This document shows, piece by piece, positions 45,340 through 62,570 of a stretch of DNA of 64,000 bases. This DNA comes from a virus. The notes under the pieces are model-generated. The model did no database searches, was not told where the DNA came from, and was given only the letters and a program-made list of their open reading frames with translations. Location: IMG/VR virus record IMGVR_UViG_3300034069_001746. One strand, written 5' to 3'. Numbering within the stretch: position 1 is the stretch's first letter; each line of letters starts with the position of its first letter. A program made the position numbers and the translations under genes.

Positions 45340-45384
45340 TTCCTCCAGTTTATCCTCTTTCTTATTGTTACAAAGGAACTAACC

Positions 45385-45792: not shown

Positions 45793-45842
45793 TCACCGTT
45801 CGATCGTTTTCACCATCATTATTAACTCTTTTAACAGGAACA

Positions 45843-46070: not shown

Positions 46071-46095
46071 CCCCATTTCAAGAAAGGTTGTCAAC

Positions 46096-46356
46096 ATGGC
46101 TCTTTATTACAGCGCCAACGGTATTGTTGCGGATCAAGAACTTCACGTCGGTAACACCGAAGGGATCAAGCTGATGCGCGGCCGCGCTGACTCGGTTTCT
46201 TGTCTGCAGGCAGACGGCGACGAACTGGAAGCTATCCGCGAACAGTTCACCGGCATTCCGATGCACAACGGCCGCGTCGTCGAATGGTTCGGTGACACTG
46301 CCAAGTTCATCGCTCGTCATTTCAAGTCACCCACTCATTATAATCCCATGTTCTAA
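46096..46356 (+). CDS. early hypothetical protein
   Basis: AAGG RBS. Confidence 0.7.
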   Translation: MALYYSANGIVADQELHVGNTEGIKLMRGRADSVSCLQADGDELEAIREQFTGIPMHNGRVVEWFGDTAKFIARHFKSPTHYNPMF

Positions 46357-46375
46357 CAAGAGAAAGGAATTTACC

Positions 46376-46612
46376 ATGAACGATTCTGAGCTTGTTCTTG
46401 TTAAGGAAGCGCCGCCCGAAGCTTTCAGTGCAACGGTGACGTTTTCTCACGGTTCGATCAAAATCGAAGGCACCATGATCTTCATTCTGGCGACCGTTGC
46501 TGAGCAGGAGAAGCGTGAAGGCTTCAAGACTACGGTCCTCAACGATTCGTTGAAGGCAGCGCTCGCCGCTGCCGAGGAACGTGTTAACAGTCGTGTTGCT
46601 AAATACGCCTAA
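46376..46612 (+). CDS. early hypothetical protein
   Basis: ATG 46376 with AAGGA RBS. Confidence 0.7.
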   Translation: MNDSELVLVKEAPPEAFSATVTFSHGSIKIEGTMIFILATVAEQEKREGFKTTVLNDSLKAALAAAEERVNSRVAKYA

Positions 46613-46664
46613 CACGCTCATTCTGATCCAACTCTTAATTTTTAATTGTGAAAAGGAACAAAAA

Positions 46665-46943
46665 ATGATTATCTTTTATGGAAACAATCAATCGGAAGCC
46701 ACCCTGACCGTGGAAAAGAGCTGGGGCGGATATTCGGTGACTGGTCAACTGGTCAAGGAAATCATCGAAGCCAAGGGGTCGGTCAAGAACATCGAGAGCT
46801 ATATGAAAAACTGCACTGTGAAGGTGTTCTTCCCCGTGCAGTTGTTGACGATGATGACCGTCGACATGGTCATATCGGTGCTCAATGATGTCAAAGATCT
46901 TGAGGCGTCCACTGCCAAGGTCAAATTCGAGTGGATAGCCTAA
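46665..46943 (+). CDS. early hypothetical protein
   Basis: ATG 46665 with AAGGA RBS. Confidence 0.7.
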   Translation: MIIFYGNNQSEATLTVEKSWGGYSVTGQLVKEIIEAKGSVKNIESYMKNCTVKVFFPVQLLTMMTVDMVISVLNDVKDLEASTAKVKFEWIA

Positions 46944-46945
46944 TT

Positions 46946-46996
46946 CACTTTCATTCTAGTCTCATAGGTCAGAGATGTGAGACTATTAAGATTGTG
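46946..46996 (+). repeat. GUCAGAG-loop structured element, copy 1
   Basis: CACTTTCATTC-TAGTCTCATA-G-GTCAGAG-A-TGTGAGACTA-TTAAGATTGTG. Confidence 0.75.
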
Positions 46997-47028
46997 GTTT
47001 TCATTTTCACATTCTAAGGAGATTTGAA

Positions 47029-47193
47029 ATGATCAAAGAAACCTATGATCATTGTAAAATTTGCAAGGGTTACGGTGGTGATATTTGGTCAAAGGAGTGT
47101 AAGCAATGTGCTGGCACCGGTATTGTCATTGTTCGCACCGGTCTTCCTAACGGTCGAGTAGATGTCAGCGCTCCAGCGCCTTACTTGCGGTAA
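47029..47193 (+). CDS. 54-aa DnaJ-type zinc-finger mini-protein, not in ORF track
   Basis: CKICKGYG and CKQCAGTG (two CxxCxGxG); AAGGAG RBS. Confidence 0.7.
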   Translation: MIKETYDHCKICKGYGGDIWSKECKQCAGTGIVIVRTGLPNGRVDVSAPAPYLR

Positions 47194-47219
47194 TCTAATC
47201 TTTTCAGAAAGGAATTAAC

Positions 47220-47573
47220 ATGCTTGATTCTGTTTCTTCTTTGACCATGTTTCCTGGTCTTGACGATCGTCTACGTGTTTGTGCAGAACTGCTTGTTACC
47301 GGTGTTGCTTTCCAGCAGGATGGGAAGACATGGTCGGTCTTCAGCCATGAAGGTGAAGAAATCGGTATTATGTCGACCTACTGGGTCAATGCAACGACCC
47401 ACGCTATGAAGAAGCTTGGTTGGAAGGTCAACGGATTCGATCCGATCATGTACGGTGACAAGCCGGCCATCACCTTCGGCCATCATCCCGATAACATGCC
47501 TCGGCTTCTGTCGAATGCCGAATACGATATCATTCTGAAGCGCCGACACCGTAAAGTTGTCACCATTCATTAA
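47220..47573 (+). CDS. early hypothetical protein
   Basis: AAGGA RBS. Confidence 0.7.
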   Translation: MLDSVSSLTMFPGLDDRLRVCAELLVTGVAFQQDGKTWSVFSHEGEEIGIMSTYWVNATTHAMKKLGWKVNGFDPIMYGDKPAITFGHHPDNMPRLLSNAEYDIILKRRHRKVVTIH

Positions 47574-47584
47574 GGAGAACAATC

Positions 47585-48307
47585 ATGCGTCGGGTGTTTG
47601 AAAAGCTAGACTTTTTTTCCAAGCGTCGGGTGTTTGTTTGTGGTGACCTTCACGGCGAATATCAAAAGCTTGAAGAAGCCCTGTTTGATGTCGGCTTCGA
47701 CACTAGTCAGGATGTCCTCATTTCGGTGGGAGACCTTGTTGATCGTGGTTCCGACAGTGAGGTATTCGAGCACTACATCAAGCAGCCTTGGTTCTACCGT
47801 GTTGTCGGTAATCATGACGATCAGCCCAGAGAATATCTTCTTGGTTATGAAAGCAAGGAGAATGTCGAGCATAATGGAGGCAAGTGGTTTTTAGATAAAT
47901 CACGCGAAGAGCAGGAGCGCATCGCTTCTTTGCTTGAAGACGCTCCCATTGCTCTGGAAGTGATCACACCTGGTGGTCACACCATCGGTATTACTCATGC
48001 TGACACGGGTAGTCGGTGGGATCATCTTGCAGAACAGTGCCGGGATCCTGGTCTAGAGCGTCAGTTGGTCAATCGGCTGACGGGCTCAAGAGAGGTTATC
48101 CGAACTGTTCAATATGACCTCAAGCAAGGTGTGACGGAGTTCAGTAATGAATTTCGGGTATGGGGTATCGATCATGTCTTTCATGGTCATACTCCCGTTG
48201 ACGACATTCTAACCGTCACCAACCGAACCTGGATCGACACCGGTGCGTTTGACCCCAAAGGCAAGCTCACCGTTCTTGATGTCGATCATTTCCTCAACAC
48301 TCTTTAA
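47585..48307 (+). CDS. Ser/Thr protein phosphatase (lambda NinI/PphA-like metallophosphoesterase)
   Basis: GDLHG, GDLVDRG, GNHD, HA, HGHTP, IDTGA motifs. Confidence 0.9.
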   Translation: MRRVFEKLDFFSKRRVFVCGDLHGEYQKLEEALFDVGFDTSQDVLISVGDLVDRGSDSEVFEHYIKQPWFYRVVGNHDDQPREYLLGYESKENVEHNGGKWFLDKSREEQERIASLLEDAPIALEVITPGGHTIGITHADTGSRWDHLAEQCRDPGLERQLVNRLTGSREVIRTVQYDLKQGVTEFSNEFRVWGIDHVFHGHTPVDDILTVTNRTWIDTGAFDPKGKLTVLDVDHFLNTL

Positions 48308-48321
48308 TAGGAGATTTAATC

Positions 48322-49299
48322 ATGGACACCAAGACTCTTTCGACGCTGCGTATCGGCGACACGGTGCGCATCCATTTCACGCACATGGGTGCCCGTGATG
48401 GTGCCCGCAGTCAACCGTTCGATGTCGTCATCACGGGCTTTCACAACACCGGTAAGGCTTACAAGGACGAAGACGGTCAGTATTACGAGTCGCGTCAGAT
48501 CAACTGGTGCTGGCGCGATATGCCCGTCGAGTTGCAGCCTGATGAGCGGGTGCGCGATGACATTCGTGGTATCGACGGATGTCATGTCGATCACATCATC
48601 GAGATCGTCAAGCGGGCTCCTTATCAGGTCCGTTCGCATCCCCGCAACGTTCTCTACGCTGCCGAACAGTCGGCTTTTCTCGATCATCAGAAGGTCGAGA
48701 AGTACCGTCAAGAAAACGGTGAAGATCCGATCGATGTTTTCGGCCGGAGGAGCATGGGTACTACCGCTGTGGGCTATATTTTCGAGGCTTATAACGAGAC
48801 CTACCTTCGCGACATACGCCCCAGCCAGTATAATGGTCACGTCTTCAAGTTAGCTGAAGCCTTGATCGCTCGGCGTCCTACGCTGGCAGTACCAACGCGT
48901 CTCGACGTTGACCGTTTCTATGCGGCGTGGTACCAAGCCGGTTGTCCTGGAAAAGCTGGTCCTTATGAAGAATACCGCTACAGCGACAATGTTGATCCCT
49001 CCCCTTTTAAGGCGCTGATCAACCGTAAAGCGTTCACTAAGTGGGTCGTGCGCAATGTCTACCGGTTCATCATGACGCAGGCTGACATCCTGAAGAACAT
49101 GATCCAGGCGGCCAAGGATGAAGAAGAATATATGCGCAAGTCCATGGACGAAGACATGGAGCGCGAGTTCGGTCGTTCTGATTACGTATCTTCTCACGCT
49201 CTGGCTGACGAAGATGGCAACATCCCTGACGAAGACATCGATGACAGTGATGAAGATGATGTCCTCGTGATTGATAATTCAGATCATTTCTATATCTGA
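48322..49299 (+). CDS. early hypothetical protein with acidic tail
   Basis: AGGAG RBS; KOW-like LRIGDTVRI start; D/E-rich C-terminus. Confidence 0.75.
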   Translation: MDTKTLSTLRIGDTVRIHFTHMGARDGARSQPFDVVITGFHNTGKAYKDEDGQYYESRQINWCWRDMPVELQPDERVRDDIRGIDGCHVDHIIEIVKRAPYQVRSHPRNVLYAAEQSAFLDHQKVEKYRQENGEDPIDVFGRRSMGTTAVGYIFEAYNETYLRDIRPSQYNGHVFKLAEALIARRPTLAVPTRLDVDRFYAAWYQAGCPGKAGPYEEYRYSDNVDPSPFKALINRKAFTKWVVRNVYRFIMTQADILKNMIQAAKDEEEYMRKSMDEDMEREFGRSDYVSSHALADEDGNIPDEDIDDSDEDDVLVIDNSDHFYI

Positions 49300-49309
49300 T
49301 CACATCACC

Positions 49310-49360
49310 CACTGTTATTCTTACTCCCTTGGTCAGAGCAGGGGAGTAATTGAAATAGTG
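49310..49360 (+). repeat. GUCAGAG-loop structured element, copy 2
   Basis: CACTGTTATTC-TTACTCCCTTG-GTCAGAG-CAGGGGAGTAA-TTGAAATAGTG. Confidence 0.8.
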
Positions 49361-49392
49361 AGTTTAACCTCAATTTAAAAAGGATAATTACC

Positions 49393-49854
49393 ATGACGTC
49401 TTCTTATCCTACTGGTACTTATCAGGAACTCCAGAACCGTGTCGTGGAATTGGAAGAATGTTTGCGTCAAACACGCAAACTGGTATCCAGGGCTGCTGCT
49501 GTCGGATTCGATGAAGAGTCTGTCCGGAAGATCTACGCCAATAACGGGGCGATCACTCGGCTTGTCGCTGTTCTTCCTGAGGAGAGGGAAGCAGGGCTGA
49601 AGTTCCTCAATGATCTTTCCTCTGAAAACAAGGATGACCTGACCCGTAAGTGCAAGGTCATCAGCATTAACAGCAATCCGGCTCCCGCAACCAATTGCGA
49701 ATTTGAAGTTCACAAGAACTACGATAAGCCGGGCGCTGACATTTTCGATCAGCAAGTGTCCATTCCTGGCTATGATCCGACACACTTTTACATCGTCGAA
49801 TGCGGCGGTGTGAGGTACGATATCGATCGTATTGGTTGGTCGGAACTCCCTTAA
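49393..49854 (+). CDS. early hypothetical protein
   Basis: AAGGA RBS. Confidence 0.7.
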   Translation: MTSSYPTGTYQELQNRVVELEECLRQTRKLVSRAAAVGFDEESVRKIYANNGAITRLVAVLPEEREAGLKFLNDLSSENKDDLTRKCKVISINSNPAPATNCEFEVHKNYDKPGADIFDQQVSIPGYDPTHFYIVECGGVRYDIDRIGWSELP

Positions 49855-49877
49855 CTTTTCATTCTAGGAGAATGATA

Positions 49878-50405
49878 ATGGTTTACGATCGTCAAGCGCA
49901 AGCCACTGCGGTACTGGAAGCCATGAACAAGTTTCCGGTTCTGGCTGGTCGCACCACCATGTTTCAAGCGGAATACATCGTCGACGCGTTGAACGCTCTT
50001 CGCGACAAAGCAAATCCCGAAGACAAGCTCACCGTTGAAGTTGGTAAATCTTACATCAATGCATCCGGCGATATCATCGAAATTATCAGGATGCATCGTA
50101 AGGGTGAAACACGGTTTGGAAAAGTCCTTCAGTGTGACACCTACGAGACGTATAACGGTAATTACAAGTTTACCAGCGATGGTCAGGTAATCTCCGGGGT
50201 TCGACATAATCGTCTGATGGACCGGGCACAGAGCGTTAAGAAAGGCGATGTCTACGGCTATCACTGGCCTGATGGTCAGAGCGTCGGTTGGTACATCGTC
50301 ACGGATGTAACCGCCAAGGATTACGGTATCACCTGGAGCAATGACGCCACCATGCGTATTCGCTATGGTTGCCCGCTTAATTACGACGCAATCCGGGTTT
50401 CCTAA
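49878..50405 (+). CDS. early hypothetical protein with LEVGKxY-type domain
   Basis: AGGAG RBS; VEVGKSYINASGDIIEI. Confidence 0.7.
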   Translation: MVYDRQAQATAVLEAMNKFPVLAGRTTMFQAEYIVDALNALRDKANPEDKLTVEVGKSYINASGDIIEIIRMHRKGETRFGKVLQCDTYETYNGNYKFTSDGQVISGVRHNRLMDRAQSVKKGDVYGYHWPDGQSVGWYIVTDVTAKDYGITWSNDATMRIRYGCPLNYDAIRVS

Positions 50406-50428
50406 TCAACAATCAGCAGAGGGCGTCA

Positions 50429-50560
50429 GTGTTTGCAGAAGAACAATACCCATCGCCTCAACAGATTCTTGATGCCTTGGGAATGGAAGCCATTTTCTTG
50501 TGTCTGCTGATCTGTGCAGCCATCTGGATTTTCTCTTCCATGATGTACAACAAGAACTAA
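50429..50560 (+). CDS. 43-aa single-TM protein, not in ORF track
   Basis: GTG start with AGAGGG RBS; AIFLCLLICAAIWIF. Confidence 0.5.
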   Translation: MFAEEQYPSPQQILDALGMEAIFLCLLICAAIWIFSSMMYNKN

Positions 50561-50588
50561 TCATTTTAGCTTTAGAAAGGAGATTGCT

Positions 50589-50999
50589 ATGCATTATCGT
50601 GAAAATCAGATCTTTGGTCAGGGTGCTCTTGCGGCTACCGAGGGTTGCGGTCCCGAGGCCAATCCCTACAAGGTCAAGACCAACTTTCATCGCTACTGGG
50701 CTGCTGGTCATAGCAGTCGACCGCAGTCGCGTACACCGGTTAACTACACCTACATGATCGGTGAGATCGTTCAGTTCCGTAGGTACTTCATGGCAACACG
50801 CAAGGATGTCAAGATGTGCATTCTCGACATCGTCGATGTTTCCATCGAGAACCAAACCTTCAATCCTACCATTCCGCCTGAAGTCAATGAGACCGGTGTC
50901 GGTCACCACCAGCATCTGGTTTTGTCGGATTATGACGGACCGTATGTCTCTGGTGCTGTTGTTGAACTTGCTCCGAATCAAAAGGTTCGAACGAATTAA
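50589..50999 (+). CDS. hypothetical protein with N-terminal RMF-like motif
   Basis: QGALAATEG...NPY...WAAGH. Confidence 0.65.
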   Translation: MHYRENQIFGQGALAATEGCGPEANPYKVKTNFHRYWAAGHSSRPQSRTPVNYTYMIGEIVQFRRYFMATRKDVKMCILDIVDVSIENQTFNPTIPPEVNETGVGHHQHLVLSDYDGPYVSGAVVELAPNQKVRTN

Positions 51000-51022
51000 C
51001 TTATTTTAAAGGATAATCGGCT

Positions 51023-51604
51023 ATGCGGTTTCTAACAAACATGACGGCAACACCAGTTCTGGCTGAGCTGGTTGCCCTGGCATCCAAGCATACCAACACC
51101 AAGGTGGTTTGTCGTGAAGGCGGACAGACCATCGCAGAAATGGATTGGGTTGATGCAGCAGAGGCCTGTGACACAGGATACGCTCCCAGCTCCAGCGACA
51201 TGTCTTTGTACATGGACATGAAGTTGGATACCGATCTTACTGCGTTCTGGGAAGAACTCGATCGACTACAGAAGCTTGTCACCAAGCCACTCGACGAACC
51301 AATCCTACCCGACGACTATCCTGTTCACCAAGGCTACCTGTATGTCGCCAACGGGAAGGTCACTCAGTTCATCGATGGGATGAACATGACAGTGGGTCGC
51401 TGGAAGGCTCTCACCATTCCTGGTATCGAGAAGGTTACTGAAGTCAAGCGGTGTGACATAGCTGGTCGCCAGGCGCGGCGTCCTATCGAAAAGCCTAAGA
51501 AGGATGTTAGCCCCGTGGCGCACCGCTGGAACACAGCGGGGACGCATATCAATCAAGCCAAGCGTCGTCCTCGTTCATCCGACAAGATCAAGAAAGTCAA
51601 ATAA
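51023..51604 (+). CDS. early hypothetical protein
   Basis: AAGGA RBS. Confidence 0.7.
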   Translation: MRFLTNMTATPVLAELVALASKHTNTKVVCREGGQTIAEMDWVDAAEACDTGYAPSSSDMSLYMDMKLDTDLTAFWEELDRLQKLVTKPLDEPILPDDYPVHQGYLYVANGKVTQFIDGMNMTVGRWKALTIPGIEKVTEVKRCDIAGRQARRPIEKPKKDVSPVAHRWNTAGTHINQAKRRPRSSDKIKKVK

Positions 51605-51623
51605 CCTACCCCTAGGAGGATTT

Positions 51624-51947
51624 ATGGCCATCGAGAGACGGCGTAGTCACTATCACTTCCTCGACGATCATTTCAACACCATTCTGACTCGGATGGGTTG
51701 CACCGATTATGTTAATCGGTTCGGAAACTTCTCTGCCTCAGGGGATAAGTACAGTCAGTATCAGACCCAATGGGAAGATGCTGGTGTTCCTTATTTCCAC
51801 GGGGCAGCGATGTACCACCTCATGGAATTGCTTTATTCCCATGAAGTAAGGGAGACCAAGCATGGCTGGATCCATCCTTACCAGTGGGTGATCGACAATT
51901 ACCGAGGCGGTTACAATCTGTCACAACACATGGAAGGGCTGGAATAG
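51624..51947 (+). CDS. early hypothetical protein
   Basis: ATG 51624 with AGGAGG RBS. Confidence 0.7.
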   Translation: MAIERRRSHYHFLDDHFNTILTRMGCTDYVNRFGNFSASGDKYSQYQTQWEDAGVPYFHGAAMYHLMELLYSHEVRETKHGWIHPYQWVIDNYRGGYNLSQHMEGLE

Positions 51948-51978
51948 CTCTTCCTCTTCCACTAGAAAGGATCTATTC

Positions 51979-52557
51979 ATGACCAACAAATCAAAGGAAT
52001 ACCAACAAGGCGTCGATGCCTATACTGCTGGCAAAGAATTGGATACCAATCCTTGGGACGATAGCCGTGAAGGCGCTTCGAGGCAGGCTCACAAAGATTG
52101 GAACCTAGGCTGGCTGGATACCCACAACGCAACCCCGCGTATCATCGTGGACATTAACACGCGTCAGGGTTCTCTGACGGTTACCAAGAAGGATGATCGT
52201 TACGACGTGGTGGTTGCCGGTGTCGTTCGTCATCCTAACTGTAACGCTGATTCAGCAATCGGCGCGATGGCGCACTATCTTCACGGTGCTGAATATAAGC
52301 TGATGAAGGATGCCAAGCAGTTTTCGCAGAACGTTGCTCTGCGTAACTGGATTGCGCAGGAGATTCGGCTGGCAATGCAGCAAGACGATGCAGCAAAACC
52401 AGGTAGCAATGGTGGTATTTACCGAGCGGCTGTTGCTGAAATCAGGACGGGGCGTATTCTTGCAAAACTCGATGGTCATCCTGTCGGAGAAATGACTTTT
52501 GCTACCAAAGAGAGCATCGAGAGTGCTACTCGTCAACTTCTTTCACAAAAGGATTAA
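51979..52557 (+). CDS. hypothetical protein with N-terminal RMF-like motif
   Basis: YQQGVDAYTAG...NPW...WNLGW. Confidence 0.65.
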   Translation: MTNKSKEYQQGVDAYTAGKELDTNPWDDSREGASRQAHKDWNLGWLDTHNATPRIIVDINTRQGSLTVTKKDDRYDVVVAGVVRHPNCNADSAIGAMAHYLHGAEYKLMKDAKQFSQNVALRNWIAQEIRLAMQQDDAAKPGSNGGIYRAAVAEIRTGRILAKLDGHPVGEMTFATKESIESATRQLLSQKD

Positions 52558-52559
52558 GC

Positions 52560-52850
52560 ATGAAGAATTCTCTTGATGCCATGAACAATGTCAGGGACGA
52601 AGTTAACGCTGTAGCAAGCGACCTCCTTTTCCTGGCTCAAGCGTTTCGTGTCACTGGTAACAATCAGGTTGCAGAGCGCCTGGCATTTAATGCTGAGAGC
52701 CTGCAAGAGGTGATTAAACCTCTTATGTCAGCCTGGAACAAGGACATGGATGAACAGCTTGGTCACGGCGAAGCCATGATGGGAAATCTTGTCAACTTGG
52801 CGTTGAGCTGTGAAATCAAGCCCCTTGCTACGGAGACGTCTGATGCCTGA
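52560..52850 (+). CDS. early hypothetical protein
   Basis: ORF track with RBS. Confidence 0.7.
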   Translation: MKNSLDAMNNVRDEVNAVASDLLFLAQAFRVTGNNQVAERLAFNAESLQEVIKPLMSAWNKDMDEQLGHGEAMMGNLVNLALSCEIKPLATETSDA

Positions 52851-53352
52851 TTTCGTTATTGTTCACAACCTCGTTGAAGCCAACGGTAAAACGGTGCGCG
52901 AGAATAATCTCGCCACCGAACACTCCATTCCGATTGGTACGCTGGTGGAGGTCAATTGCGACTATCTACCCGAACACCGTACCCGTCAATTCATTGCAGC
53001 TCATGGTCGCGACTGTGATGGTGAGCCGCTTTACTCGCTGTGTGCTAGCCGTAATCACTGCAATGACCAGATTGGTACTGACGGCTACGGCGATGCACGT
53101 AGTCAGGAAAGCATCGATTTATATCGGCGGGTGTACCACAACGGAAGTTGGGGCCGTGATGCGTTGATTATCGTCGACGATCCCTGGAACCGAGACATGG
53201 AGCAAGCGGATCAGACCGCTGAACTACTCCTCACAGACGGCGTTGTCGTGACCCCGGCGAAGTTCCTTAAGGGTAAGTGGATGGCACCTGGTTACAACGG
53301 GGTGAACGTGGAGTTCCATCCGACCGGCTGGATGAAGATGCCACCGTCTTAA
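52843..53352 (+). CDS. early hypothetical protein (PxGT beta-domain)
   Basis: ATG 52843 with GGAG RBS; IPIGTLVEV. Confidence 0.7.
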   Translation: MPDFVIVHNLVEANGKTVRENNLATEHSIPIGTLVEVNCDYLPEHRTRQFIAAHGRDCDGEPLYSLCASRNHCNDQIGTDGYGDARSQESIDLYRRVYHNGSWGRDALIIVDDPWNRDMEQADQTAELLLTDGVVVTPAKFLKGKWMAPGYNGVNVEFHPTGWMKMPPS

Positions 53353-53364
53353 CGGAGAACGATA

Positions 53365-53727
53365 ATGAGTGAAGTTAATAAAGTACTGGAGAAAGCCAGT
53401 CTACGAAATCCTCGAAATTCCAAAGAAGTAAAAAGAGCGTGGCGAAAACTTATCGCAGCTGATGCTTTGTGTCAGCTTCTTAAAAACGCGGCCAAACATG
53501 ATTGCATCACGGCTATCGGTTCGGTGACTCATGATGATGTTTGGAAAAAGGTTCATCACGTCATCTTAACCACGGGAATGTCTAGGGACATCGACCAGTG
53601 GTTTACAACTGTTCAGATTCCGTTCGACTGGAATGATCCTTGTCGCGATTCTTCCTATGAAACTGAAACTATGGCATTCATCGACGCTCTCCACGACAAA
53701 CTTCAAGAAGTGGGGGCTATTCCCTAA
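53365..53727 (+). CDS. early hypothetical protein
   Basis: GGAG RBS. Confidence 0.7.
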   Translation: MSEVNKVLEKASLRNPRNSKEVKRAWRKLIAADALCQLLKNAAKHDCITAIGSVTHDDVWKKVHHVILTTGMSRDIDQWFTTVQIPFDWNDPCRDSSYETETMAFIDALHDKLQEVGAIP

Positions 53728-53741
53728 TTTGGATAATTAAC

Positions 53742-54101
53742 ATGAAAGCAGGATTACGAGCCCATCTCGACAGCTTATTAGCCGAGAACAAGAAGGTTAC
53801 CATGAAGGATATTCAGCGTAACCCCGAGGCCTACAAGAAGTTCATCGAAGACTGCAAGACGCTTCACCGCCCCATCCCACCCGGTAAAGCTATCCAGCAG
53901 GCTGGGCATCACTGGCTCCACTCACTTCCTCATTTAACGGGAAGTGCGGACGCTGGTGACTGGGTTGTTGCCCAGTGGAGTCCATCGGAACTTCGCTGGT
54001 ATCACAGCAACGATGTGTCGACCATGGCCAAACCGCTTTACGGCGATGGCGCTATGACCCATTGGGAATGGGTAGCAGAAGTTCCTCTTCCTCCTCTATA
54101 A
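53742..54101 (+). CDS. early hypothetical protein
   Basis: ORF track. Confidence 0.7.
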   Translation: MKAGLRAHLDSLLAENKKVTMKDIQRNPEAYKKFIEDCKTLHRPIPPGKAIQQAGHHWLHSLPHLTGSADAGDWVVAQWSPSELRWYHSNDVSTMAKPLYGDGAMTHWEWVAEVPLPPL

Positions 54102-54111
54102 GGAAAGAATC

Positions 54112-54381
54112 ATGAAAGAGTTTTACGCCCTTCTTGCTGAGAACGGTTACCCAACGCCACCAGAGGGTGAAGGTTCTCTGGTAATCCTTTCGGTGACCAC
54201 GGTTACTGAGGGGTATGTGTTGGTTGTTCGGCGTAGCTGGACGGATGGTAGCGTTCGAGAAGATATTGTGTTGGTTATCGAAAATCAGTACGGCCGCAAC
54301 AAGGGCCAGTACCGTCTTGGTACACGGCACAAGATCTTCGAACATTATGTCGAAGAGCCTCCTGAGCCCAAGATCAACTAA
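54112..54381 (+). CDS. early hypothetical protein
   Basis: AAGGA RBS. Confidence 0.7.
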   Translation: MKEFYALLAENGYPTPPEGEGSLVILSVTTVTEGYVLVVRRSWTDGSVREDIVLVIENQYGRNKGQYRLGTRHKIFEHYVEEPPEPKIN

Positions 54382-54436
54382 AGTTATCGGTATATTACCC
54401 TGGTGATTAAAGGAAAAGATGTGGTGTCTTTTCCTT
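54371..54436 (+). promoter_or_regulatory. putative early (vRNAP) promoter 2 plus leader hairpin
   Basis: AGATCAAC(54371)-N12-TATATTAC(54391)-N5-TGA, then AAGGAAAAGA/TCTTTTCCTT hairpin. Confidence 0.75.
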
Positions 54437-54473
54437 CTTTCTTTTAACCCTTCTCATTCTTAGGAGATTTATC

Positions 54474-55241
54474 ATGTCTACCCTGCATCTCAACATCGAA
54501 CTCAAGCTCGGCCGGACCTATCTCGATGAGAAGGGTCACAAGGTAACACTGGTGCGTGAGTTCACGCCTGAGGACCCTGACTACGTCCAGGGCTTCCGTT
54601 TCCGTGGGGACAACAAGATCAACTACCTCGCCAACGGCGAGGTAGTTGGTTCCCTCGGCGATTTCATCCACGTCAAGCAACTGGGTGCTTACCCCCTCAA
54701 GAACGAAGTTATCGAGACCACCGATGAAACGGTGATCTTGAAGGACGTCGGCCTTCTCTTGAAGGAAGGTAAGTTCTACCGCAATGGTCTGGGTCATGCC
54801 GTACTGATCATCGGTGCGCCAGTCGTCGATGGTCGCTGGTGGAAGAAGGGTTTCCGCTTCATGGATCAACGCGGGACTTTCTACAAACCCAACGGGTCGG
54901 TCGACTCGCGCATCTGGGGTATCCTGGATATCGTGATGGAAATCACACCGGAAAGCCCTCTAAAAGAGCAGGTGTCCGATGAAGAGATGGAAACCATCAT
55001 GGGTGGCATCAACACCCAGCTCGAACGGATGAACCGCCGCGACGCGCTGAACCCCAATACGCTGCTTCACAAGGCAGCGGTGTTCTCCAAGAAGTCGCTG
55101 AAGGGCTTGGGTGTCGCTTACGCCGCCATCGGCACTGGTGCCATCACGCGCAGTCCCAAATTTGGGCTGTTCTGTTGGACTGTAGCTGGTGCTACCTTCG
55201 CCACCGACGCTCTGACGGGTGATGTCACCGACTGGGAATAA
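54474..55241 (+). CDS. early protein with two LEVGKxY-type domains and C-terminal hydrophobic segments
   Basis: LKLGRTYLDEKGHKVTL and LKEGKFYRNGLGHAVLI; AGGAG RBS. Confidence 0.75.
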   Translation: MSTLHLNIELKLGRTYLDEKGHKVTLVREFTPEDPDYVQGFRFRGDNKINYLANGEVVGSLGDFIHVKQLGAYPLKNEVIETTDETVILKDVGLLLKEGKFYRNGLGHAVLIIGAPVVDGRWWKKGFRFMDQRGTFYKPNGSVDSRIWGILDIVMEITPESPLKEQVSDEEMETIMGGINTQLERMNRRDALNPNTLLHKAAVFSKKSLKGLGVAYAAIGTGAITRSPKFGLFCWTVAGATFATDALTGDVTDWE

Positions 55242-55247
55242 CCTAAA

Positions 55248-55275
55248 AAGGCTAGGGGATAAAACCTCTAGCCTT
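55248..55275 (+). terminator. terminator-like hairpin
   Basis: AAGGCTAGGGG/CCTCTAGCCTT. Confidence 0.6.
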
Positions 55276-55285
55276 GGTTAACCCG

Positions 55286-55347
55286 AGATCAACATTCTTC
55301 ATCCGTATATTACCCTCATGAATAGGAAAAGGAATAGTCTTTTCCTA
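55286..55347 (+). promoter_or_regulatory. putative early (vRNAP) promoter 3 plus leader hairpin
   Basis: AGATCAAC(55286)-N12-TATATTAC(55306)-N5-TGA, then TAGGAAAAGG/TCTTTTCCTA hairpin. Confidence 0.75.
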
Positions 55348-55375
55348 GGTTGTTTTAAACAAAGGAGATTTCATC

Positions 55376-55579
55376 ATGTCGACTCTTCACGCCAAGAAGT
55401 CCGCTCGTAAGGTCAGCAACGTCACCAAGACGATCACCCGCACCAAGGTGCGCGGTGTCGCTGAGGATGTCCAGCGCCAATTGTTCAAGCGCGCTCGTAC
55501 GGCGTTCTGGCTCGGTATCGGCGTTGCTGGTGCTCTCTTTATCGAAGAGCAGATCCATCAGATCAAGCACGGTTCGTAA
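55376..55579 (+). CDS. basic single-TM early protein
   Basis: AAGGAG RBS; K/R-rich N-terminus then AFWLGIGVAGALFI. Confidence 0.7.
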   Translation: MSTLHAKKSARKVSNVTKTITRTKVRGVAEDVQRQLFKRARTAFWLGIGVAGALFIEEQIHQIKHGS

Positions 55580-55726
55580 GACGAATCAGTTCTGTTTGTG
55601 AAAACAAGTAAAGGATTCACCTAGATGCGTCCACCGTGACGATCACACCAATCCCCTTTACCCTTTTAGTTAGATAGTTATTTCATCCTAGTTCTTTTCC
55701 CCTTTCAATACAAGGAAATATACATC

Positions 55727-56038
55727 ATGGATACCACCAACACGTTCGCCGGTAACAACAGCAACGATCATGTCACTGGTACGACCAACGACGGCATCAG
55801 CCGCGAAGAGACCGTCTTCTCGATGAAGATCAAGAAGCCTCATCTGTTCCAGCGCATCAAGAACACCCTTAGCAACAATCCTGTTCCGACGGCAGTGGGC
55901 GCATCGCTCGCCATCGGTGCCGCAGCGCTCGGCAGCGTTAACTACAACCGCTACGGCAATGCGCTCGGTCCCGTCACCAACGAGGACCTGCGTGAAGTGG
56001 CAGCTGCTGGTGCATCGCTGTTTAACGCGCTGCGCTGA
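55727..56038 (+). CDS. early protein with hydrophobic segment
   Basis: AAGGA RBS; PTAVGASLAIGAAALGSV. Confidence 0.7.
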   Translation: MDTTNTFAGNNSNDHVTGTTNDGISREETVFSMKIKKPHLFQRIKNTLSNNPVPTAVGASLAIGAAALGSVNYNRYGNALGPVTNEDLREVAAAGASLFNALR

Positions 56039-56051
56039 TCTGATGAACAGG

Positions 56052-56079
56052 GTGGGGAGGGGGTATTACCCCTCCCCAT
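56052..56079 (+). terminator. intrinsic terminator-like hairpin
   Basis: TGGGGAGGGG/CCCCTCCCCA stem followed by an AT-rich tract. Confidence 0.65.
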
Positions 56080-56166
56080 TACTGGTAATTTTGTTTTTAT
56101 CCATCTTGTCTTTATAGCGATTTTGTCAACATGGATAAAAACAGGATATCACGCAAGGAGAAGCCG

Positions 56167-56388
56167 ATGACGCATGAAGGAGAATTATCACTGGAGGTCG
56201 GTAAGACCTATGGGACACGTGAAGGCTATGACCGAGTCACCATTCGTTACAAAGATCCCCATTCCTTTTGGACACCTTTTGTAGGGGATAATGGTCGTAC
56301 CTATATGTCTAATGGTTATCAGACATGGGACGGTAACCACCATGTTGCTCTTCACAATGATCTTGTTCGAGAGATTGAGATCGGATAG
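56167..56388 (+). CDS. LEVGKxY-domain small protein
   Basis: ATG 56167 with AAGGAG RBS; LEVGKTYGTREG. Confidence 0.7.
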   Translation: MTHEGELSLEVGKTYGTREGYDRVTIRYKDPHSFWTPFVGDNGRTYMSNGYQTWDGNHHVALHNDLVREIEIG

Positions 56389-56410
56389 TGCTTTGTAAGG
56401 AGATACCCTT

Positions 56411-56674
56411 ATGTCAGTAAAACTTGAGGTCAATAAATCCTATCGTAATCGCTTGGGAGAAGTAGTTACCATTATTCGTGAAGCAGGACTAGGTACTCAT
56501 CGCTTCACTGGTAGTGATGGTGAAGTTTATCGGTATAATGGTCGAGTAGGGTTTTTCAAGAACACCGATCTTGATCTCATCGAGGAGACCACGAAACTGG
56601 ATACCATGCGCCCTGGTCCTTGGGGTAATTTCATCGCAGGGATGTTTGATGGTAGCTATCGTAAGGTTGCTTAA
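56411..56674 (+). CDS. LEVGKxY-domain small protein
   Basis: LEVNKSYRNRLGEVVTI. Confidence 0.7.
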   Translation: MSVKLEVNKSYRNRLGEVVTIIREAGLGTHRFTGSDGEVYRYNGRVGFFKNTDLDLIEETTKLDTMRPGPWGNFIAGMFDGSYRKVA

Positions 56675-56689
56675 GGGAAAGGCTAACTC

Positions 56690-57298
56690 GTGACTGAAAC
56701 TCTTCAAGAAGAAATCATTCGTCTCAATCCTAAAATGAAATGGAATTGGCGAAAAACAAAGAAGTCCATCAAGAAGCGAGCAGCATCACTCATTCCCCAT
56801 GTTAGTTATGCCCTAGGATGTCGGGGTCATCCAGGCTTGGTGATTGAACGTAACTACTGGCCCGATTGGTCGCTTCGTGATCTGTATGGGAGCGATGTGG
56901 TGATCAAATCGCTGGTGGATGGGATCGAGGAGAGTTGCTCGATCTACAGTTGCGCTCCGCAAGCTCTTTCAAAGGAAGAAGCGTTTCGGCGAGCAGAAGA
57001 GATCAGAACGGTTCATGATTTTGATCAGTCTGTTCGATACGGTTATCCCGTAGAACAGGTTAAGGGATGGTGTCAAGACTGGATTAATCAAGGCGTACTC
57101 TATTACGTCCTCCACGATCAGGAAGGACATGTTGTTCGTTCTGCGCAGGCCTTCACCAAGGAAGATGCAGAAGCAGATATTGCTAGAACTCTTCGTCTCG
57201 CTGCTGAGGGGTGGATAAAGGATCCAGGAAACCCTCGCATGGTCGACATGCTGACCTATCCTGCTTCCATTACCTCGTTTGAAGTGAGCGTCCCGTGA
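56690..57298 (+). CDS. early hypothetical protein
   Basis: GTG start; GCRGHPGLV motif. Confidence 0.7.
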   Translation: MTETLQEEIIRLNPKMKWNWRKTKKSIKKRAASLIPHVSYALGCRGHPGLVIERNYWPDWSLRDLYGSDVVIKSLVDGIEESCSIYSCAPQALSKEEAFRRAEEIRTVHDFDQSVRYGYPVEQVKGWCQDWINQGVLYYVLHDQEGHVVRSAQAFTKEDAEADIARTLRLAAEGWIKDPGNPRMVDMLTYPASITSFEVSVP

Positions 57299-57525
57299 TC
57301 AATCTGGAACTACGCAAATTCTACCAAAACAAACTGGGAGAAACATTTGTTGTTGTTGACACCGTCGATTCGGAAGATATCGGTTATGCGGTGGGGTTTA
57401 GATTTTGGGTTGTTCAAATAGGCGATCACAACAATGTTTTCCCTGTTACCGCTAACGGATATCAGGACGTCGTTTGTCTAGAACAACAACCAGGGGACCT
57501 GGTGCAAGAAGTCATTTCCCAGTAA
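57295..57525 (+). CDS. LEVGKxY-domain small protein
   Basis: LELRKFYQNKLGETFVV. Confidence 0.65.
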   Translation: MINLELRKFYQNKLGETFVVVDTVDSEDIGYAVGFRFWVVQIGDHNNVFPVTANGYQDVVCLEQQPGDLVQEVISQ

Positions 57526-57555
57526 CATAATAAAGGTTTAAAGCGAGAAAACGTT

Positions 57556-58035
57556 ATGGCGCATTTGATGATTGAAGTCGGCAAGACCTACTTGTCAAGG
57601 AACAGCAAGGTTGTAAAGATCACCAAGGAAAGGAGTTTAGCGCGGTACAAGTTTCAAGGTGATAATGGTCTTCCTTATACCAAATACGGAAAGTCTCGTT
57701 ATCCAGGTGATGACTTGGTTATGACCAAAGCAGAGGCCGACAAGATTAATAAAAAGGCAGCTGCTGTTACACAGCCTCCCGCTGATTCTCCAGTGCGTAA
57801 GCCTCGGGTAAAGAAGAGTGAGGGTGTTCTTCCCATCGACGAACTACGCCCACCGATGCCGCCTGTTGCTCCTCCTTCTACTCAAAAGACAGTCAAGGTC
57901 AATCCGGATCTCACCCACGTCACTCTTAATCTAGATAAACGACAAACACCCCTGAAGATCGACATCAATCAAAACGGTCGCATCACAACAATCATAATCC
58001 CGTCTGATTACGACTCTCCCCTCGTCCAGTCATAA
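57556..58035 (+). CDS. LEVGKxY-domain protein with Pro-rich linker
   Basis: IEVGKTYLSRNSKVVKI. Confidence 0.7.
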   Translation: MAHLMIEVGKTYLSRNSKVVKITKERSLARYKFQGDNGLPYTKYGKSRYPGDDLVMTKAEADKINKKAAAVTQPPADSPVRKPRVKKSEGVLPIDELRPPMPPVAPPSTQKTVKVNPDLTHVTLNLDKRQTPLKIDINQNGRITTIIIPSDYDSPLVQS

Positions 58036-58120
58036 CGGATTGGATGATCGAGATGTTGCAAACTTTGTTGATTAAAATTCTTTCGGCTATTAGTCATCCG
58101 CGTAAGTAAAGGAGTAGGTA

Positions 58121-58474
58121 ATGCCTCATCTTTCTGTTTATGTTGATCCGCGTACCTTTGCTATCCTTGAACGGGAGAGCATGGTAAGCGGGTTGAGTGT
58201 GGAACAGCTGGCTGCAAAGGCTGTGGAGAGTTCAGCTATTGCTACTCTTCCAGGAGGTCATCACTATCCTGCTGGATTCAATGGTGATCATTGGCCGCGA
58301 GATCACGAAGTGGATTTGGGTGGCGTTAGTATCGGTCTGCGTGAGAATCATGACGGATCGATGTCAGTTACCCCGTGGAACCAACCTTCAGCAAGACTGA
58401 CTAATGGTGGTGTTGGGGTTCCAGGCTTTGACTCGTTTAATCCTGATAATCTAGTATTCAGGGTTACTCCTTAG
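58121..58474 (+). CDS. early hypothetical protein (possible N-terminal ribbon-helix-helix)
   Basis: LSVYVD....AILERES...GLSVEQLAAKAVE. Confidence 0.6.
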   Translation: MPHLSVYVDPRTFAILERESMVSGLSVEQLAAKAVESSAIATLPGGHHYPAGFNGDHWPRDHEVDLGGVSIGLRENHDGSMSVTPWNQPSARLTNGGVGVPGFDSFNPDNLVFRVTP

Positions 58475-58486
58475 AGGATATTTTGA

Positions 58487-58696
58487 ATGTCTCGGGCAAT
58501 GTCAGATCTGGAGATAACCGCAAGACGGCAGCTTGAGCTAGAAGAAGAAATTCTTAAGCATTGGCCTGGAAGTGAGTATCAACAGTCAAGAGACTATATC
58601 AACCAGGAGAAACGAATACGCGTATTAAAGCGGATTGTGTATAGATTTGATCACCCGGATGATGGTGATTCGATCTTCTATCCGAATGAACGCTAA
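58487..58696 (+). CDS. early hypothetical protein
   Basis: GAGGA RBS. Confidence 0.65.
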   Translation: MSRAMSDLEITARRQLELEEEILKHWPGSEYQQSRDYINQEKRIRVLKRIVYRFDHPDDGDSIFYPNER

Positions 58697-58718
58697 CTGA
58701 CTCAATCAGGATAGACTT

Positions 58719-59009
58719 ATGATTCCAGAGAGTTATTATCCTGAGTTTGACTTTGACCATCTTGGTATTAAGTTGATCATGACGTGTCGATCGCATCCTG
58801 AGCAATATGATGCTTATAGTGGTCAAGGTCACAAAGTAGGTTATATCCGTCTTCGCTATGGTAAGTTCACGGTTGATGTTCCTTTTGGAACCATCGTTTA
58901 TGTTCACCAATTTGAAGACGATATGAAAGGAGAATTTGATACTCCAGAAGAACGCGAGCTTTATCTAAAAGATGCTTGCGGTACCCTCAAACACTTGTTG
59001 AAAAAATAA
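58719..59009 (+). CDS. hypothetical phage protein
   Basis: TC.SHPEQYD...VGYIRLRYG.F motif. Confidence 0.7.
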   Translation: MIPESYYPEFDFDHLGIKLIMTCRSHPEQYDAYSGQGHKVGYIRLRYGKFTVDVPFGTIVYVHQFEDDMKGEFDTPEERELYLKDACGTLKHLLKK

Positions 59010-59025
59010 CTAGGAGATTGTTTTT

Positions 59026-59220
59026 ATGCAGCATCAATTTGAAACTAATTCTTACAACTCAACACGGCTTTACGTCGAAGATAACAATGCCACCACTTTT
59101 GATGGCGTTAACTCGGTAGTCAAGCTTAGTATTGATAACAAAGAACCAATCGAGTTAGACGTTGATAAGGTCAAAGAACTTATTGACGTCCTGAATTTTG
59201 TTATTCGCAACAAGTCATAA
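59026..59220 (+). CDS. early hypothetical protein
   Basis: AGGAG RBS. Confidence 0.65.
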   Translation: MQHQFETNSYNSTRLYVEDNNATTFDGVNSVVKLSIDNKEPIELDVDKVKELIDVLNFVIRNKS

Positions 59221-59239
59221 ATCAAGAAAGGAATTCATC

Positions 59240-59392
59240 ATGCTTTCTCTTATCACTCGTACCGTAGGCGTGTTGGTAGTCGTTGGACTGGCGGTCGTAG
59301 GAGCTGATAGTGTTCTTACCCGCATTCAGATGTGGAAGGACGGTTACGACGCTCATCGTGAGGCTCACCGTGGTTACCCGAGGGCTGCATGA
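59240..59392 (+). CDS. small single-TM protein
   Basis: ATG 59240 with AAGGA RBS; VGVLVVVGLAVVGA. Confidence 0.6.
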   Translation: MLSLITRTVGVLVVVGLAVVGADSVLTRIQMWKDGYDAHREAHRGYPRAA

Positions 59393-59748
59393 AGACATTC
59401 ATCTTCGGCCTTTTGGCCCTGGTGTTTGCGGGTATTACCGCTAATGTAGGACTATTGTGGGACAACCAACACAATCCGATTTTCTTTATCCTAATAGTCA
59501 TTACGGTCATGCTGTCGGCAAGCTACATCACGCTTATCTTTCGGCATAGGTATCATCTTGTCCTGGAGGAAGGCAAGACCTATCAACGGCGTGATGGGCG
59601 CTTGGTGATCGTACGACGAACCAGCCGGGTACATCCTCAAATTGTTACCCCCAAATATCCGTTTGTGTCGCGGGATGGCTATCAATATCACGCGAACGGT
59701 AAAAGTGCCGCGAACCGTAAATTCGATCTGATGATGATCGTTGACTGA
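59389..59748 (+). CDS. two-TM protein with C-terminal LEVGKxY-type domain
   Basis: Two hydrophobic segments then LEEGKTYQRRDGRLVIV. Confidence 0.7.
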   Translation: MKTFIFGLLALVFAGITANVGLLWDNQHNPIFFILIVITVMLSASYITLIFRHRYHLVLEEGKTYQRRDGRLVIVRRTSRVHPQIVTPKYPFVSRDGYQYHANGKSAANRKFDLMMIVD

Positions 59749-59835
59749 TCATTACTTTTATTTTGACTGCATGTTTTTAACCAAGGAACGTGCAGTCACT
59801 AAAGAAGTAAGTGTAGCCTTTAAAGGAGAATAACG

Positions 59836-60117
59836 ATGCGTAAGTTGGAGATCACGGAGATTGACTCGGACTGTTATCTCGTGGAAACGACGGACTTCCA
59901 GAACGATGAGATCGAGTATCATTGGGACAGCACGACCCGTTCGTTCTACGCTCAGAACAAGCGCACGTTCAAGCGTGTGACGCTTGACTATGGCACGTAC
60001 AACACCATCGGTCTCGCCATCGACTTCATCATGAAGACCGAGCGCGAACAGCGTGATGCTCATCATCTAGCCATCGTCTTGACGATGGCTGATCGTCGCA
60101 GTAGAATATCAGCATAG
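59836..60117 (+). CDS. early hypothetical protein
   Basis: AAGGAG RBS. Confidence 0.7.
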   Translation: MRKLEITEIDSDCYLVETTDFQNDEIEYHWDSTTRSFYAQNKRTFKRVTLDYGTYNTIGLAIDFIMKTEREQRDAHHLAIVLTMADRRSRISA

Positions 60118-60152
60118 GGCTGATATTTCTATCTCACAAGGAGTGTTTTACC

Positions 60153-60695
60153 ATGACCAACAACAAGTTCATTGACATCAATCCCGTGGATCACCCCGTT
60201 GGTACCAAGTTGAAGGTGCAGTATCGTGGGCTGTCCGAGCGGTATGAGGTCACCATTACCGACTGGCCCGGCATCACGGGTAAGGTGGTGAAGTTCTCGA
60301 ATCTCCATATCGGCATGTCGGGTGTCCTGCGGCTCGACCAGATCGAGGTGTTGGAGGTTATTCAGAAGGCTCAGGAAGCGTCGCTCGGTGACATCCTTTC
60401 TTTGGCGCTCGAAGCCAGGCGCGGAAGCGAGGTGGAGGATCCCAAGAAGGAGATTGACACTCTCTTGGGGGACGTTCCGCGGTATTTCAAGGAGACCCGT
60501 CGCCTCGACTCCAGCATCAATATCGAGCGCATCAAGCGGTATCGTGAACTGCATCAGTGTTCCTTGACCGAGGCTAAGCTGAAGGTCGAGGTGATGATGC
60601 TCATCGAGATGCTCAATGAAGCCGTTGATATGACCGACGTCCGTACGATCCGTCAGTGGGCGATGAACCGCCTCTACGTGCCGCTCGCGGTGTAG
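60153..60695 (+). CDS. PxGT-domain protein with C-terminal ribosomal L7/L12-CTD-like motif
   Basis: HPVGTKLKV; INIERIKRYRELHQCSLTEAKLKVE. Confidence 0.65.
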   Translation: MTNNKFIDINPVDHPVGTKLKVQYRGLSERYEVTITDWPGITGKVVKFSNLHIGMSGVLRLDQIEVLEVIQKAQEASLGDILSLALEARRGSEVEDPKKEIDTLLGDVPRYFKETRRLDSSINIERIKRYRELHQCSLTEAKLKVEVMMLIEMLNEAVDMTDVRTIRQWAMNRLYVPLAV

Positions 60696-60699
60696 CTTA

Positions 60700-60748
60700 C
60701 GCTTTCATTCTAACTCCATGGTCAGAGCATGGAGTTATTAAGACAGTG
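60700..60748 (+). repeat. GUCAGAG-loop structured element, copy 3
   Basis: CGCTTTCATTC-TAACTCCATG-GTCAGAG-CATGGAGTTA-TTAAGACAGTG. Confidence 0.8.
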
Positions 60749-60767
60749 TTTATTAAAGGAATAAATC

Positions 60768-61397
60768 ATGAGTCGTCAAAAGTTTGTGATTGCTGATACG
60801 CATTTCAGCCAAGCATCGATGTGTGCGTTTGCCAACGACGATGGATCATCCCTGCGCCCGTGGGGTCGCCCGGTTGCTAACTGGAAAGAGATGAGCGAAG
60901 AAGAGCGTCTCGATCTCAAGCCTGAATTCGAGCGCTATGCCGCTGAAATGGATGAAGCCATGGTTGACAATTGGAACAAAGTAGTTCCCAAGGAAGGGGC
61001 GACAGTGTACCATCTGGGCGATGTCGCCATGAAGGAAAAGCAACTTCCTATCCTTAATCGCCTTCATGGCAAAAAGAAGTTGATTTTGGGTAATCACGAT
61101 ATCTTCTCTGCCAAGGTGTATCTGCAATATTTCTACGATGTTCAGGCATGTAAGGTAGGTGATGGGATTATCATGACCCATATTCCGATTCATGGAGATT
61201 CCATCAAACAGCGCTGGAAGGCAAACGTCCACGGGCATCTTCACGCAGGATGTGTGATGATGGATGACGATAAGAATTGTCGCGTGTTTAATCCTCGCTA
61301 TTTGTGCGTCTCAGTGGAACAGATTGGATATACGCCGCTGTCTTGGGAAGACATGATGAAGCGGATTGATCAGCAACGAGAAGGAGTGGTGAAATGA
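60768..61397 (+). CDS. calcineurin-like metallophosphoesterase
   Basis: IADTHF, YHLGDV, LILGNHD, THIP, NVHGHLH. Confidence 0.88.
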   Translation: MSRQKFVIADTHFSQASMCAFANDDGSSLRPWGRPVANWKEMSEEERLDLKPEFERYAAEMDEAMVDNWNKVVPKEGATVYHLGDVAMKEKQLPILNRLHGKKKLILGNHDIFSAKVYLQYFYDVQACKVGDGIIMTHIPIHGDSIKQRWKANVHGHLHAGCVMMDDDKNCRVFNPRYLCVSVEQIGYTPLSWEDMMKRIDQQREGVVK

Positions 61398-61594: not shown

Positions 61595-61608
61595 AAAGGA
61601 TTTTTATC

Positions 61609-62154: not shown

Positions 62155-62157
62155 ACC

Positions 62158-62559: not shown

Positions 62560-62570
62560 AGGAAAATATA

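Follow-up and report, generated by a model that had tools for sequence, protein, structure and literature searches.

Hairpins at gene junctions of the early region

The window analysed here, a 64,000-nucleotide stretch from the IMG/VR virus record IMGVR_UViG_3300034069_001746, is assigned on its sequence to an uncultivated phiKZ-like jumbo phage. Its DNA polymerase, a divergent family B enzyme (PF20286), has its best GenBank matches in phiKZ-like phages at 28% identity. The window as a whole has no close DNA relative among GenBank phages. Its + strand between 45 and 64 kb is a run of small genes, the early region, and contains three intergenic RNA hairpins that an earlier note, made from the letters alone, had singled out. 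We found all three exactly as described there, with their stems, loops and flanks, together with a degenerate fourth copy. The family to which they belong, termed class A below, is examined as a candidate set of mRNA processing signals. The window copies and their parts are as follows.

46946-46996, + strand: class A copy 1; 76 bits; folding energy -17.1 kcal/mol, z -2.55
46946-46952 / 46990-46996, + strand: lower stem of copy 1
46953-46956 (ATTC) / 46986-46989 (TTAA), + strand: internal loop of copy 1
46957-46966 / 46976-46985, + strand: upper stem of copy 1, 10 bp
46967-46975: apical loop of copy 1, G GTCAGAG A; loop sequence GGTCAGAGA
46943 and 47029: stop codon before copy 1 (2 nt before the element) and next start codon
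49310-49360, + strand: class A copy 2; 75 bits; -24.0 kcal/mol, z -4.75
49317-49320 (ATTC) / 49350-49353 (TTGA), + strand: internal loop of copy 2
49321-49331 / 49339-49349, + strand: upper stem of copy 2, 11 bp, with apical loop GTCAGAG at 49332-49338
49299 and 49393: stop codon before copy 2 and next start codon
60700-60748, + strand: class A copy 3; 72 bits; -19.5 kcal/mol, z -5.12
60707-60710 (ATTC) / 60738-60741 (TTAA), + strand: internal loop of copy 3
60711-60720 / 60728-60737, + strand: upper stem of copy 3, 10 bp, with apical loop GTCAGAG at 60721-60727
60695 and 60768: stop codon before copy 3 and next start codon
59752-59810, + strand: degenerate fourth copy; 30.5 and 48.6 bits in two model searches; -25.5 kcal/mol, z -7.58
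59760-59763 (ATTT) / 59799-59802 (CTAA), + strand: internal loop of the fourth copy (AUUU/CUAA)

Copies 1-3 are built to a single plan: a lower stem of 6-7 bp (CRCU.. / ..AGUG) leads into a 4x4 internal loop, 5'-AUUC / 5'-UU(A/G)A, above which an upper stem of 10-11 bp, unlike in sequence among the copies and paired in each, carries GUCAGAG in its apical loop. The fourth copy has an 8-bp lower stem, a 15-bp upper stem and a 5-nt apical loop unlike GUCAGAG; it lies between a stop codon at 59748 and a start codon at 59836. All four are intergenic and in sense orientation, and copies 1-3 begin 2-10 nt past a stop codon and end 7-19 nt before the next ribosome-binding site (RBS).

A covariance model seeded with the three window copies and one copy from a relative was run on the 64-kb window with filters off. 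Copies 1-3 scored 68-76 bits (E about 1e-14 to 1e-19), and are thus not a chance resemblance. A hairpin scan anchored on GTCAGAG-like loops also raised GGTCAGAG at 50274 as a further copy, which we rejected because it lies inside a coding region.

The sense strand of copies 1-3 folds more stably than the antisense strand by 3-4.4 kcal/mol (-17.1 versus -12.7 kcal/mol for copy 1, -24.0 versus -19.7 for copy 2 and -19.5 versus -16.5 for copy 3), owing to G-U pairs. No U-tract follows the elements, whose tails read like UUAAGA and whose stems are AU-rich.

Conservation and covariation in related phages

The relatives used for comparison come from a set of roughly 40 metagenomic contigs, of up to 308 kb, that encode homologues of the window polymerase at 53-70% identity. 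Searching the window and these contigs with the covariance model, as the earlier note had suggested, returned the fourth window copy and seven further copies in three related metagenomic jumbo phages, whose DNA polymerases are 67-70% identical to that of the window. Class A thus amounts to 11 copies on 4 phage contigs, those outside the window being distributed as follows.

G001, a complete 307,821-bp IMG/VR genome: 2 copies, with no others in the genome
FSSH01000099: 1 copy
L072, a 270-kb JGI contig: 4 copies inside 4 kb

Over all 11 copies, pairing holds in 96.8% of the pair cells, as against 30-49% in slid controls. Thirteen of the 17 pairs vary on both sides, and the covariation score was reached by none of 500 shuffles. 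Together with the G-U pairs and the missing U-tract, this stem covariation bears out the proposal that the hairpin is a recognised sense-strand RNA signal and no terminator, unlike the GC-rich terminators of this phage group.

Among the 10 non-degenerate copies, mean pairwise identity is 100% in the 5' strand of the internal loop and 88% in its 3' strand, 78% in the apical loop, 54-66% in the stem arms and 42-50% in the flanks. The apical loop reads GUCAGAG in five of these copies, GUGAGAG in two, GUGCGAU in two and GUGCGAA in one, giving the consensus GU(C/G)(A/C)GA(G/U/A) with G1, U2, G5 and A6 invariant in 10/10. The invariance claimed for GUCAGAG is consequently a property of the window; the loop varies in the class A relatives and, further out, sister classes have unrelated loops (see below). 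Copies within one genome have diverged from each other as much as copies from different genomes, which indicates that the family is old and that its unpaired bases are under purifying selection. Because the stems diverged through compensatory change, the longest identical runs between copies are only ~5-8 nt.

Sister classes and hairpin-free relatives

Scanning the early regions of the relatives with a descriptor revealed the same architecture in other sequences, which we grouped as classes B and C.

Class B, + strand: L071:17191-21409 (5 copies) and L072:17537-17564 (1 copy); lower stem AGACNNUA../..UANNGCC
Class C: L076:14663-16730 (+ strand, 5 copies) and L075:1495-2642 (- strand, 3 copies); lower stem CUANNUUC/GANNAUAG

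The internal loop of class B is mostly ACUC/UUGA and its apical loops are mutually unrelated, while class C has CUAC/UAUU or UUAC/CAUU and varies in both upper stem and apical loop. The three classes together comprise 25 elements on seven contigs, all of them intergenic, right behind stop codons and in sense with the flanking genes. Counted as upper stem plus 4 plus lower stem, the helix takes up 20-24 positions, or about two turns, in 24 of the 25 elements (20-22 positions in window copies 1-3). The next start codon usually follows the upper stem by 27-43 nt.

No such hairpins were found in L074 (14734-16396) and L077 (16445-18372). The junctions between small early genes there show a GC-rich terminator with a TATAT(T/C)AC promoter behind it, an arrangement resembling the PeSL of T4-type phages. 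That these two relatives have a terminator and promoter instead of such hairpins suggests two alternative routes to separate mRNAs. In the available flanks of L200-L203, L073 and L078, several of which are short, there was no recurrent hairpin class.

Comparison with the RNase III sites of T7

We folded the five early RNase III sites of T7 (R0.3, R0.5, R1, R1.1 and R1.3) from NC_001604. In R0.3, R0.5 and R1.1 the lower stem is followed by an A-A mismatch and a C-G pair, above which come a UC/UAU loop, an upper stem of 9-10 bp and a small apical loop, so that their internal loop reads 5'-ACUC / 5'-UAUGA. The T7 cleavage coordinates, which we take to be 890, 1468 and 5887, all land between UAU and G. 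Apical loops are not read by RNase III. The internal loop of R1.1 has been described as 4 nt/5 nt (PMC6121014). Substrates of E. coli RNase III typically comprise two helical turns, and internal loops confine cleavage to one strand and one phosphodiester, giving a protective 3' hairpin (PMC1540722).

The elements described here share with the T7 sites the succession of lower stem, internal loop, upper stem of 9-11 bp and small apical loop over a span of about two turns, as well as their place as sense-strand intercistronic hairpins of an early operon. The internal loops are close: 5'-A(C/U)UC / 5'-UU(G/A)A here, 5'-ACUC / 5'-UAUGA in T7. T7 and classes A and B have in common an N-A mismatch, a Y-R pair and then a UC/UU loop, the 3' strand being 1 nt shorter in our elements. 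The middle Y-R position covaries (U-A, C-G, U-G), and its T7 counterpart is the C-G pair. The distance to the next start codon is also alike, 27-35 nt for the T7 sites and 27-43 nt after the upper stem here. The earlier note had known of no described motif matching the hairpin; for the internal loop, T7 offers a close described counterpart. Of the four roles offered there, an RNase III-type site as in T7 early mRNA fits best, with a helix of about two turns and AYUC/UURA near ACUC/UAUGA.

Several differences have to be set beside this likeness. The internal loop is asymmetric (4/5) in T7, whereas it is a symmetric 4x4 here, 10-11 bp below the apical loop. Upper-stem sequence is conserved among the T7 sites, whereas in our elements it is the loops that are conserved while the stems covary, and the semi-conserved apical heptaloop of class A has no T7 counterpart. 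Moreover, the carrier is a phiKZ-like jumbo phage with its own polymerase for early genes, and cleavage is predicted from the sequence.

Repeated intercistronic hairpins are likewise the Bs-RNase III sites of the early mRNAs of the Bacillus phages SP82 and SPO1, where they are strongly conserved within one phage. They differ in their Gram-positive host enzyme and in motif.

A proposed model of early mRNA processing

The reading that we favour, to which we give a probability of roughly 0.55, is that the elements are signals of the T7 type for processing and stabilising mRNA between cistrons, and that the host RNase III cuts them. It brings in the only three phiKZ-type early promoter motifs of the window, which share the context CG.TATATTACYC...TGA.

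45130, + strand: early promoter motif TGTATTAC
54391, + strand: early promoter motif TATATTAC
55306, + strand: early promoter motif TATATTAC

A long early + strand message would start at promoters of the TATATTAC type, for instance at 45130, 54391 and 55306, and presumably one polycistronic transcript crosses the region. Copies 1 and 2, which follow the 45130 motif at 1.8 and 4.2 kb, should lie inside a long early transcript. Each element would fold as a quasi-continuous helix of about two turns, interrupted by its pyrimidine-rich 4x4 loop one turn down from the apical loop. The host RNase III would bind this helix and cut it once, within the 3' strand of its internal loop, after UU in UURA by analogy with the cut after UAU in T7 UAUGA. 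We infer cleavage, RNase III as the enzyme and the cut position alike; the cut would fall after 46987 in copy 1, 49351 in copy 2 and 60739 in copy 3. The upstream cistrons would keep a protective 3' hairpin, the downstream cistron would receive a defined leader of ~30-40 nt before its RBS, and the cut would thereby split the operon into segments of independent stability and translation. The complete relative G001 had no match to PF14622, PF00636 or PF00035, and thus encodes neither an RNase III nor a double-stranded RNA-binding domain, so that the enzyme would presumably be that of the host.

A number of observations weigh against this model. The similarity to the T7 internal loop was spotted post hoc, and the public runs containing the window sequence are plant-metagenome DNA runs, with no RNA run among them. 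Only 4 of ~45 junctions of the window early region carry an element, and G001 has just 2 copies in 307 kb, so the hairpin is no general punctuation mark. The class A apical loop is 78% identical, as against 54-66% for the stem arms, although RNase III ignores apical loops, and the conservation of the internal loop (88-100%) could equally reflect a sequence-specific protein. Since the semi-conserved heptaloop and the rarity of the elements exceed what RNase III alone would explain, such a protein stays either a rival or an added layer.

Alternative explanations

The strongest competitor holds that the element is a recognition site, perhaps a cleavage site, of a sequence-specific RNA-binding protein or endoribonuclease, probably phage-encoded; we regard it as possible but rather unlikely. 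The factor would read AUUC/UURA and the heptaloop GUNNGAN, which face the same side of the helix at a distance of one turn, might act together with RNase III, and could control how particular early mRNAs are processed, translated, stabilised or localised. The pattern of conservation speaks for it, as the unpaired bases (100% and 88% in the internal loop, 78% in the apical loop) are more conserved than the stem arms (54-66%), purifying selection on the loops following from the equal divergence within and between genomes. In addition, the two loops keep a fixed spacing of 10-11 bp, few junctions bear the element, and the internal-loop sequence is lineage-specific (classes A and B versus class C), as expected of a co-evolving factor. 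However, classes B and C keep the architecture with unrelated apical loops, which argues for a shared function independent of the apical loop; for the internal loop there is a match in a known host RNase III site; and the neighbouring genes offered no candidate RNA-binding protein in Pfam and PHROGs, only phosphoesterases and a zinc-ribbon protein.

A related proposal, which we hold more tentatively still, is that class A is a dual signal. Besides or instead of forming an RNase III site, the heptaloop G-U-N-N-G-A-N and AUUC/UURA would dock a dedicated phage factor, by which a small number of early mRNA segments could be singled out for regulated processing, translation or trafficking in a jumbo phage of the nucleus-forming type. 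This would amount to a phage-specific RNA-protein recognition system so far undescribed in chimalliviruses. The hairpin may also be excised as a small RNA, one of the candidate roles of the earlier note.

A passive hairpin that is never cleaved, serving as a barrier to 3'-5' exonucleases or as an insulator of the downstream RBS, strikes us as improbable. The hairpins, with folding energies of -17 to -25 kcal/mol (z -2.5 to -7.6), are stable and are placed right behind stop codons at a fixed distance from the next RBS, but a passive barrier would require neither conservation of the internal loop nor a length kept at two turns. Furthermore, a 3' barrier works only at a 3' end, which needs downstream cleavage or termination.

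Harder to credit again is a transcription signal for the phage RNA polymerases, be it a pause site, an antitermination site of nut or put type or a non-canonical terminator. Like lambda nut, the elements are sense-strand RNA hairpin signals within early operons. BoxB itself is a 5-bp stem with a GNRA-like pentaloop, beside boxA and near the promoter. The stems of 10-11 bp and loops of 7-9 nt differ from those of boxB, there is an internal loop, no boxA-like CGCTCTT stands beside any copy, and copies 1 and 2 are 1.8 and 4.2 kb past the nearest early promoter motif, hence not promoter-proximal. The nut/boxB-like role suggested in the earlier note was rejected on these grounds.

For the elongated terminator hairpins of the giant phage 201phi2-1, a link to antitermination has been speculated by the authors (PMC11512511), which lends the idea of a transcription signal some support. 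The conserved terminator of phiKZ and 201phi2-1 is a GC-rich CCYCCCC/GGGRRGG hairpin followed by TTAT, and our elements share with it the condition of a conserved hairpin repeated intergenically in chimallivirus-type jumbo phages (PMC10914365, PMC11512511). Versions of the phiKZ motif are present elsewhere in the window and in the relatives. The elements differ from it in being AU-rich and bipartite, with no U-tract, T-rich tail or TTAT, and were not listed in the terminator scan; an intrinsic or phiKZ-type terminator was accordingly rejected.

Least probable of all is a recombination or cassette boundary, or a small mobile palindrome, that shuffles small early genes in the manner of PeSL: early gene order is indeed scrambled among the relatives, with hairpins beside non-homologous genes in different phages, but identical runs of only ~5-8 nt make the copies poor substrates for homologous recombination, the G-U pairs and the strictly kept sense orientation speak for RNA, and the element has no promoter. 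In T4-type phages PeSL are conserved intergenic stem-loop cassettes repeated between the small early genes of a hyperplastic, non-syntenic region (PMC2839356, PMC4122927). A PeSL combines a terminator-like stem-loop with an early promoter, whereas the elements here have an internal loop and two-turn geometry, with no TATATTAC-like motif in or beside them, and this identity was rejected.

Searches for other identities

The Rfam search, another check that had been proposed, gave no family match at the elements. At the gathering threshold the window yielded only a group I intron away from them, and an E-value search of 45000-64000 returned nothing at the elements; the relatives' loci had no matches either. 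No hammerhead, twister or other ribozyme was found in Rfam searches at equivalent junctions.

A promoter role was rejected, as the TATATTAC motifs lie elsewhere and a sigma-70 scan stayed at chance level. An N4-type DNA hairpin promoter was likewise rejected on stem and loop size and on the presence of the TATATTAC promoters. For mimicry of an anticodon loop, a 7-nt loop whose second base is U and whose sixth is A was all that spoke in favour. As a partner for loop-loop or antisense pairing with GUCAGAG, CTCTGAC occurs twice on the + strand, both times in coding regions, and was discarded.

GenBank phages gave no DNA match to the region or to a single element, and a class A model match of 19.8 bits inside a coding sequence of a Phikzvirus genome was put down to chance. 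A pattern search of IMG/VR gave 62 matches, of which one was real (G001) and the others due to chance. An exact-pattern scan of prokaryote genomes gave at least 120 matches; there was no in-register hairpin among the matches listed, hence no sign of a host original mimicked by the phage.

Context of the elements in the phage genome

Further structures of the early region, and the genes next to the elements, are listed below.

54410-54436 and 55323-55347, + strand: leader hairpins GGAAAAG...CTTTTCC, ~20 nt after the motifs at 54391 and 55306
~55248 and 56050, + strand: GC-rich terminator-like hairpins
47029-47193, + strand: 54-aa zinc-ribbon protein with a weak DnaJ CXXCXGXG match, directly after copy 1
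47585-48307, + strand: NinI-like Ser/Thr phosphatase (Metallophos), further past copy 1
60768-61397, + strand: phosphoesterase (phrog_547), directly after copy 3

A leader hairpin follows the 45130 motif as well. The relatives have TATATTAC or TATATCAC at equivalent junctions. The stretch 56050-56147 (+ strand) holds two hairpins. The first is GC-rich, GGGGAGGGG/CCCCTCCCC; its loop contains GTATTAC, and it lacks a T-run. Directly after it, at 56090-56147 and just 5' of the gene starting at 56167, lies a long, nearly perfect AU-rich hairpin of ~20 bp, possibly another double-stranded RNA substrate or a regulatory leader.

Gene order around the elements is not kept between relatives. The early region as a whole, set against G001:150000-189900 and L066, is hyperplastic: tblastn found matches for only 8 of the 45 window open reading frames (ORFs) between 45000 and 64000 in that corresponding 40 kb of G001, the closest complete relative, and in a different order. 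The group I intron of the window (RF00028, 11050-11394, - strand, 70.1 bits, E 1e-15) adjoins a 517-aa ORF at 11383-12936.

Discussion

Early transcription in phiKZ-like jumbo phages is carried out by phage-encoded polymerases, and studies of gene expression in this group have centred on promoters and terminators. In the literature we found no description of RNase III-type mRNA processing in phiKZ-like or nucleus-forming phages. The elements are most likely a known kind of signal, of the RNase III type, in a new phage group. With an internal loop near that of T7 in a phage unrelated to T7, they would provide a useful natural data set on what RNase III reads in internal loops, and they could serve as compact parts for splitting operons. 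Should the apical loop bind a protein, the finding would go beyond the ordinary.

If the favoured reading is true, the clade would possess two interchangeable means of separating genes, a processing hairpin or a terminator plus promoter. And if the elements are cut by the host RNase III, early expression in this clade would rely on a host RNase despite its host-independent transcription.

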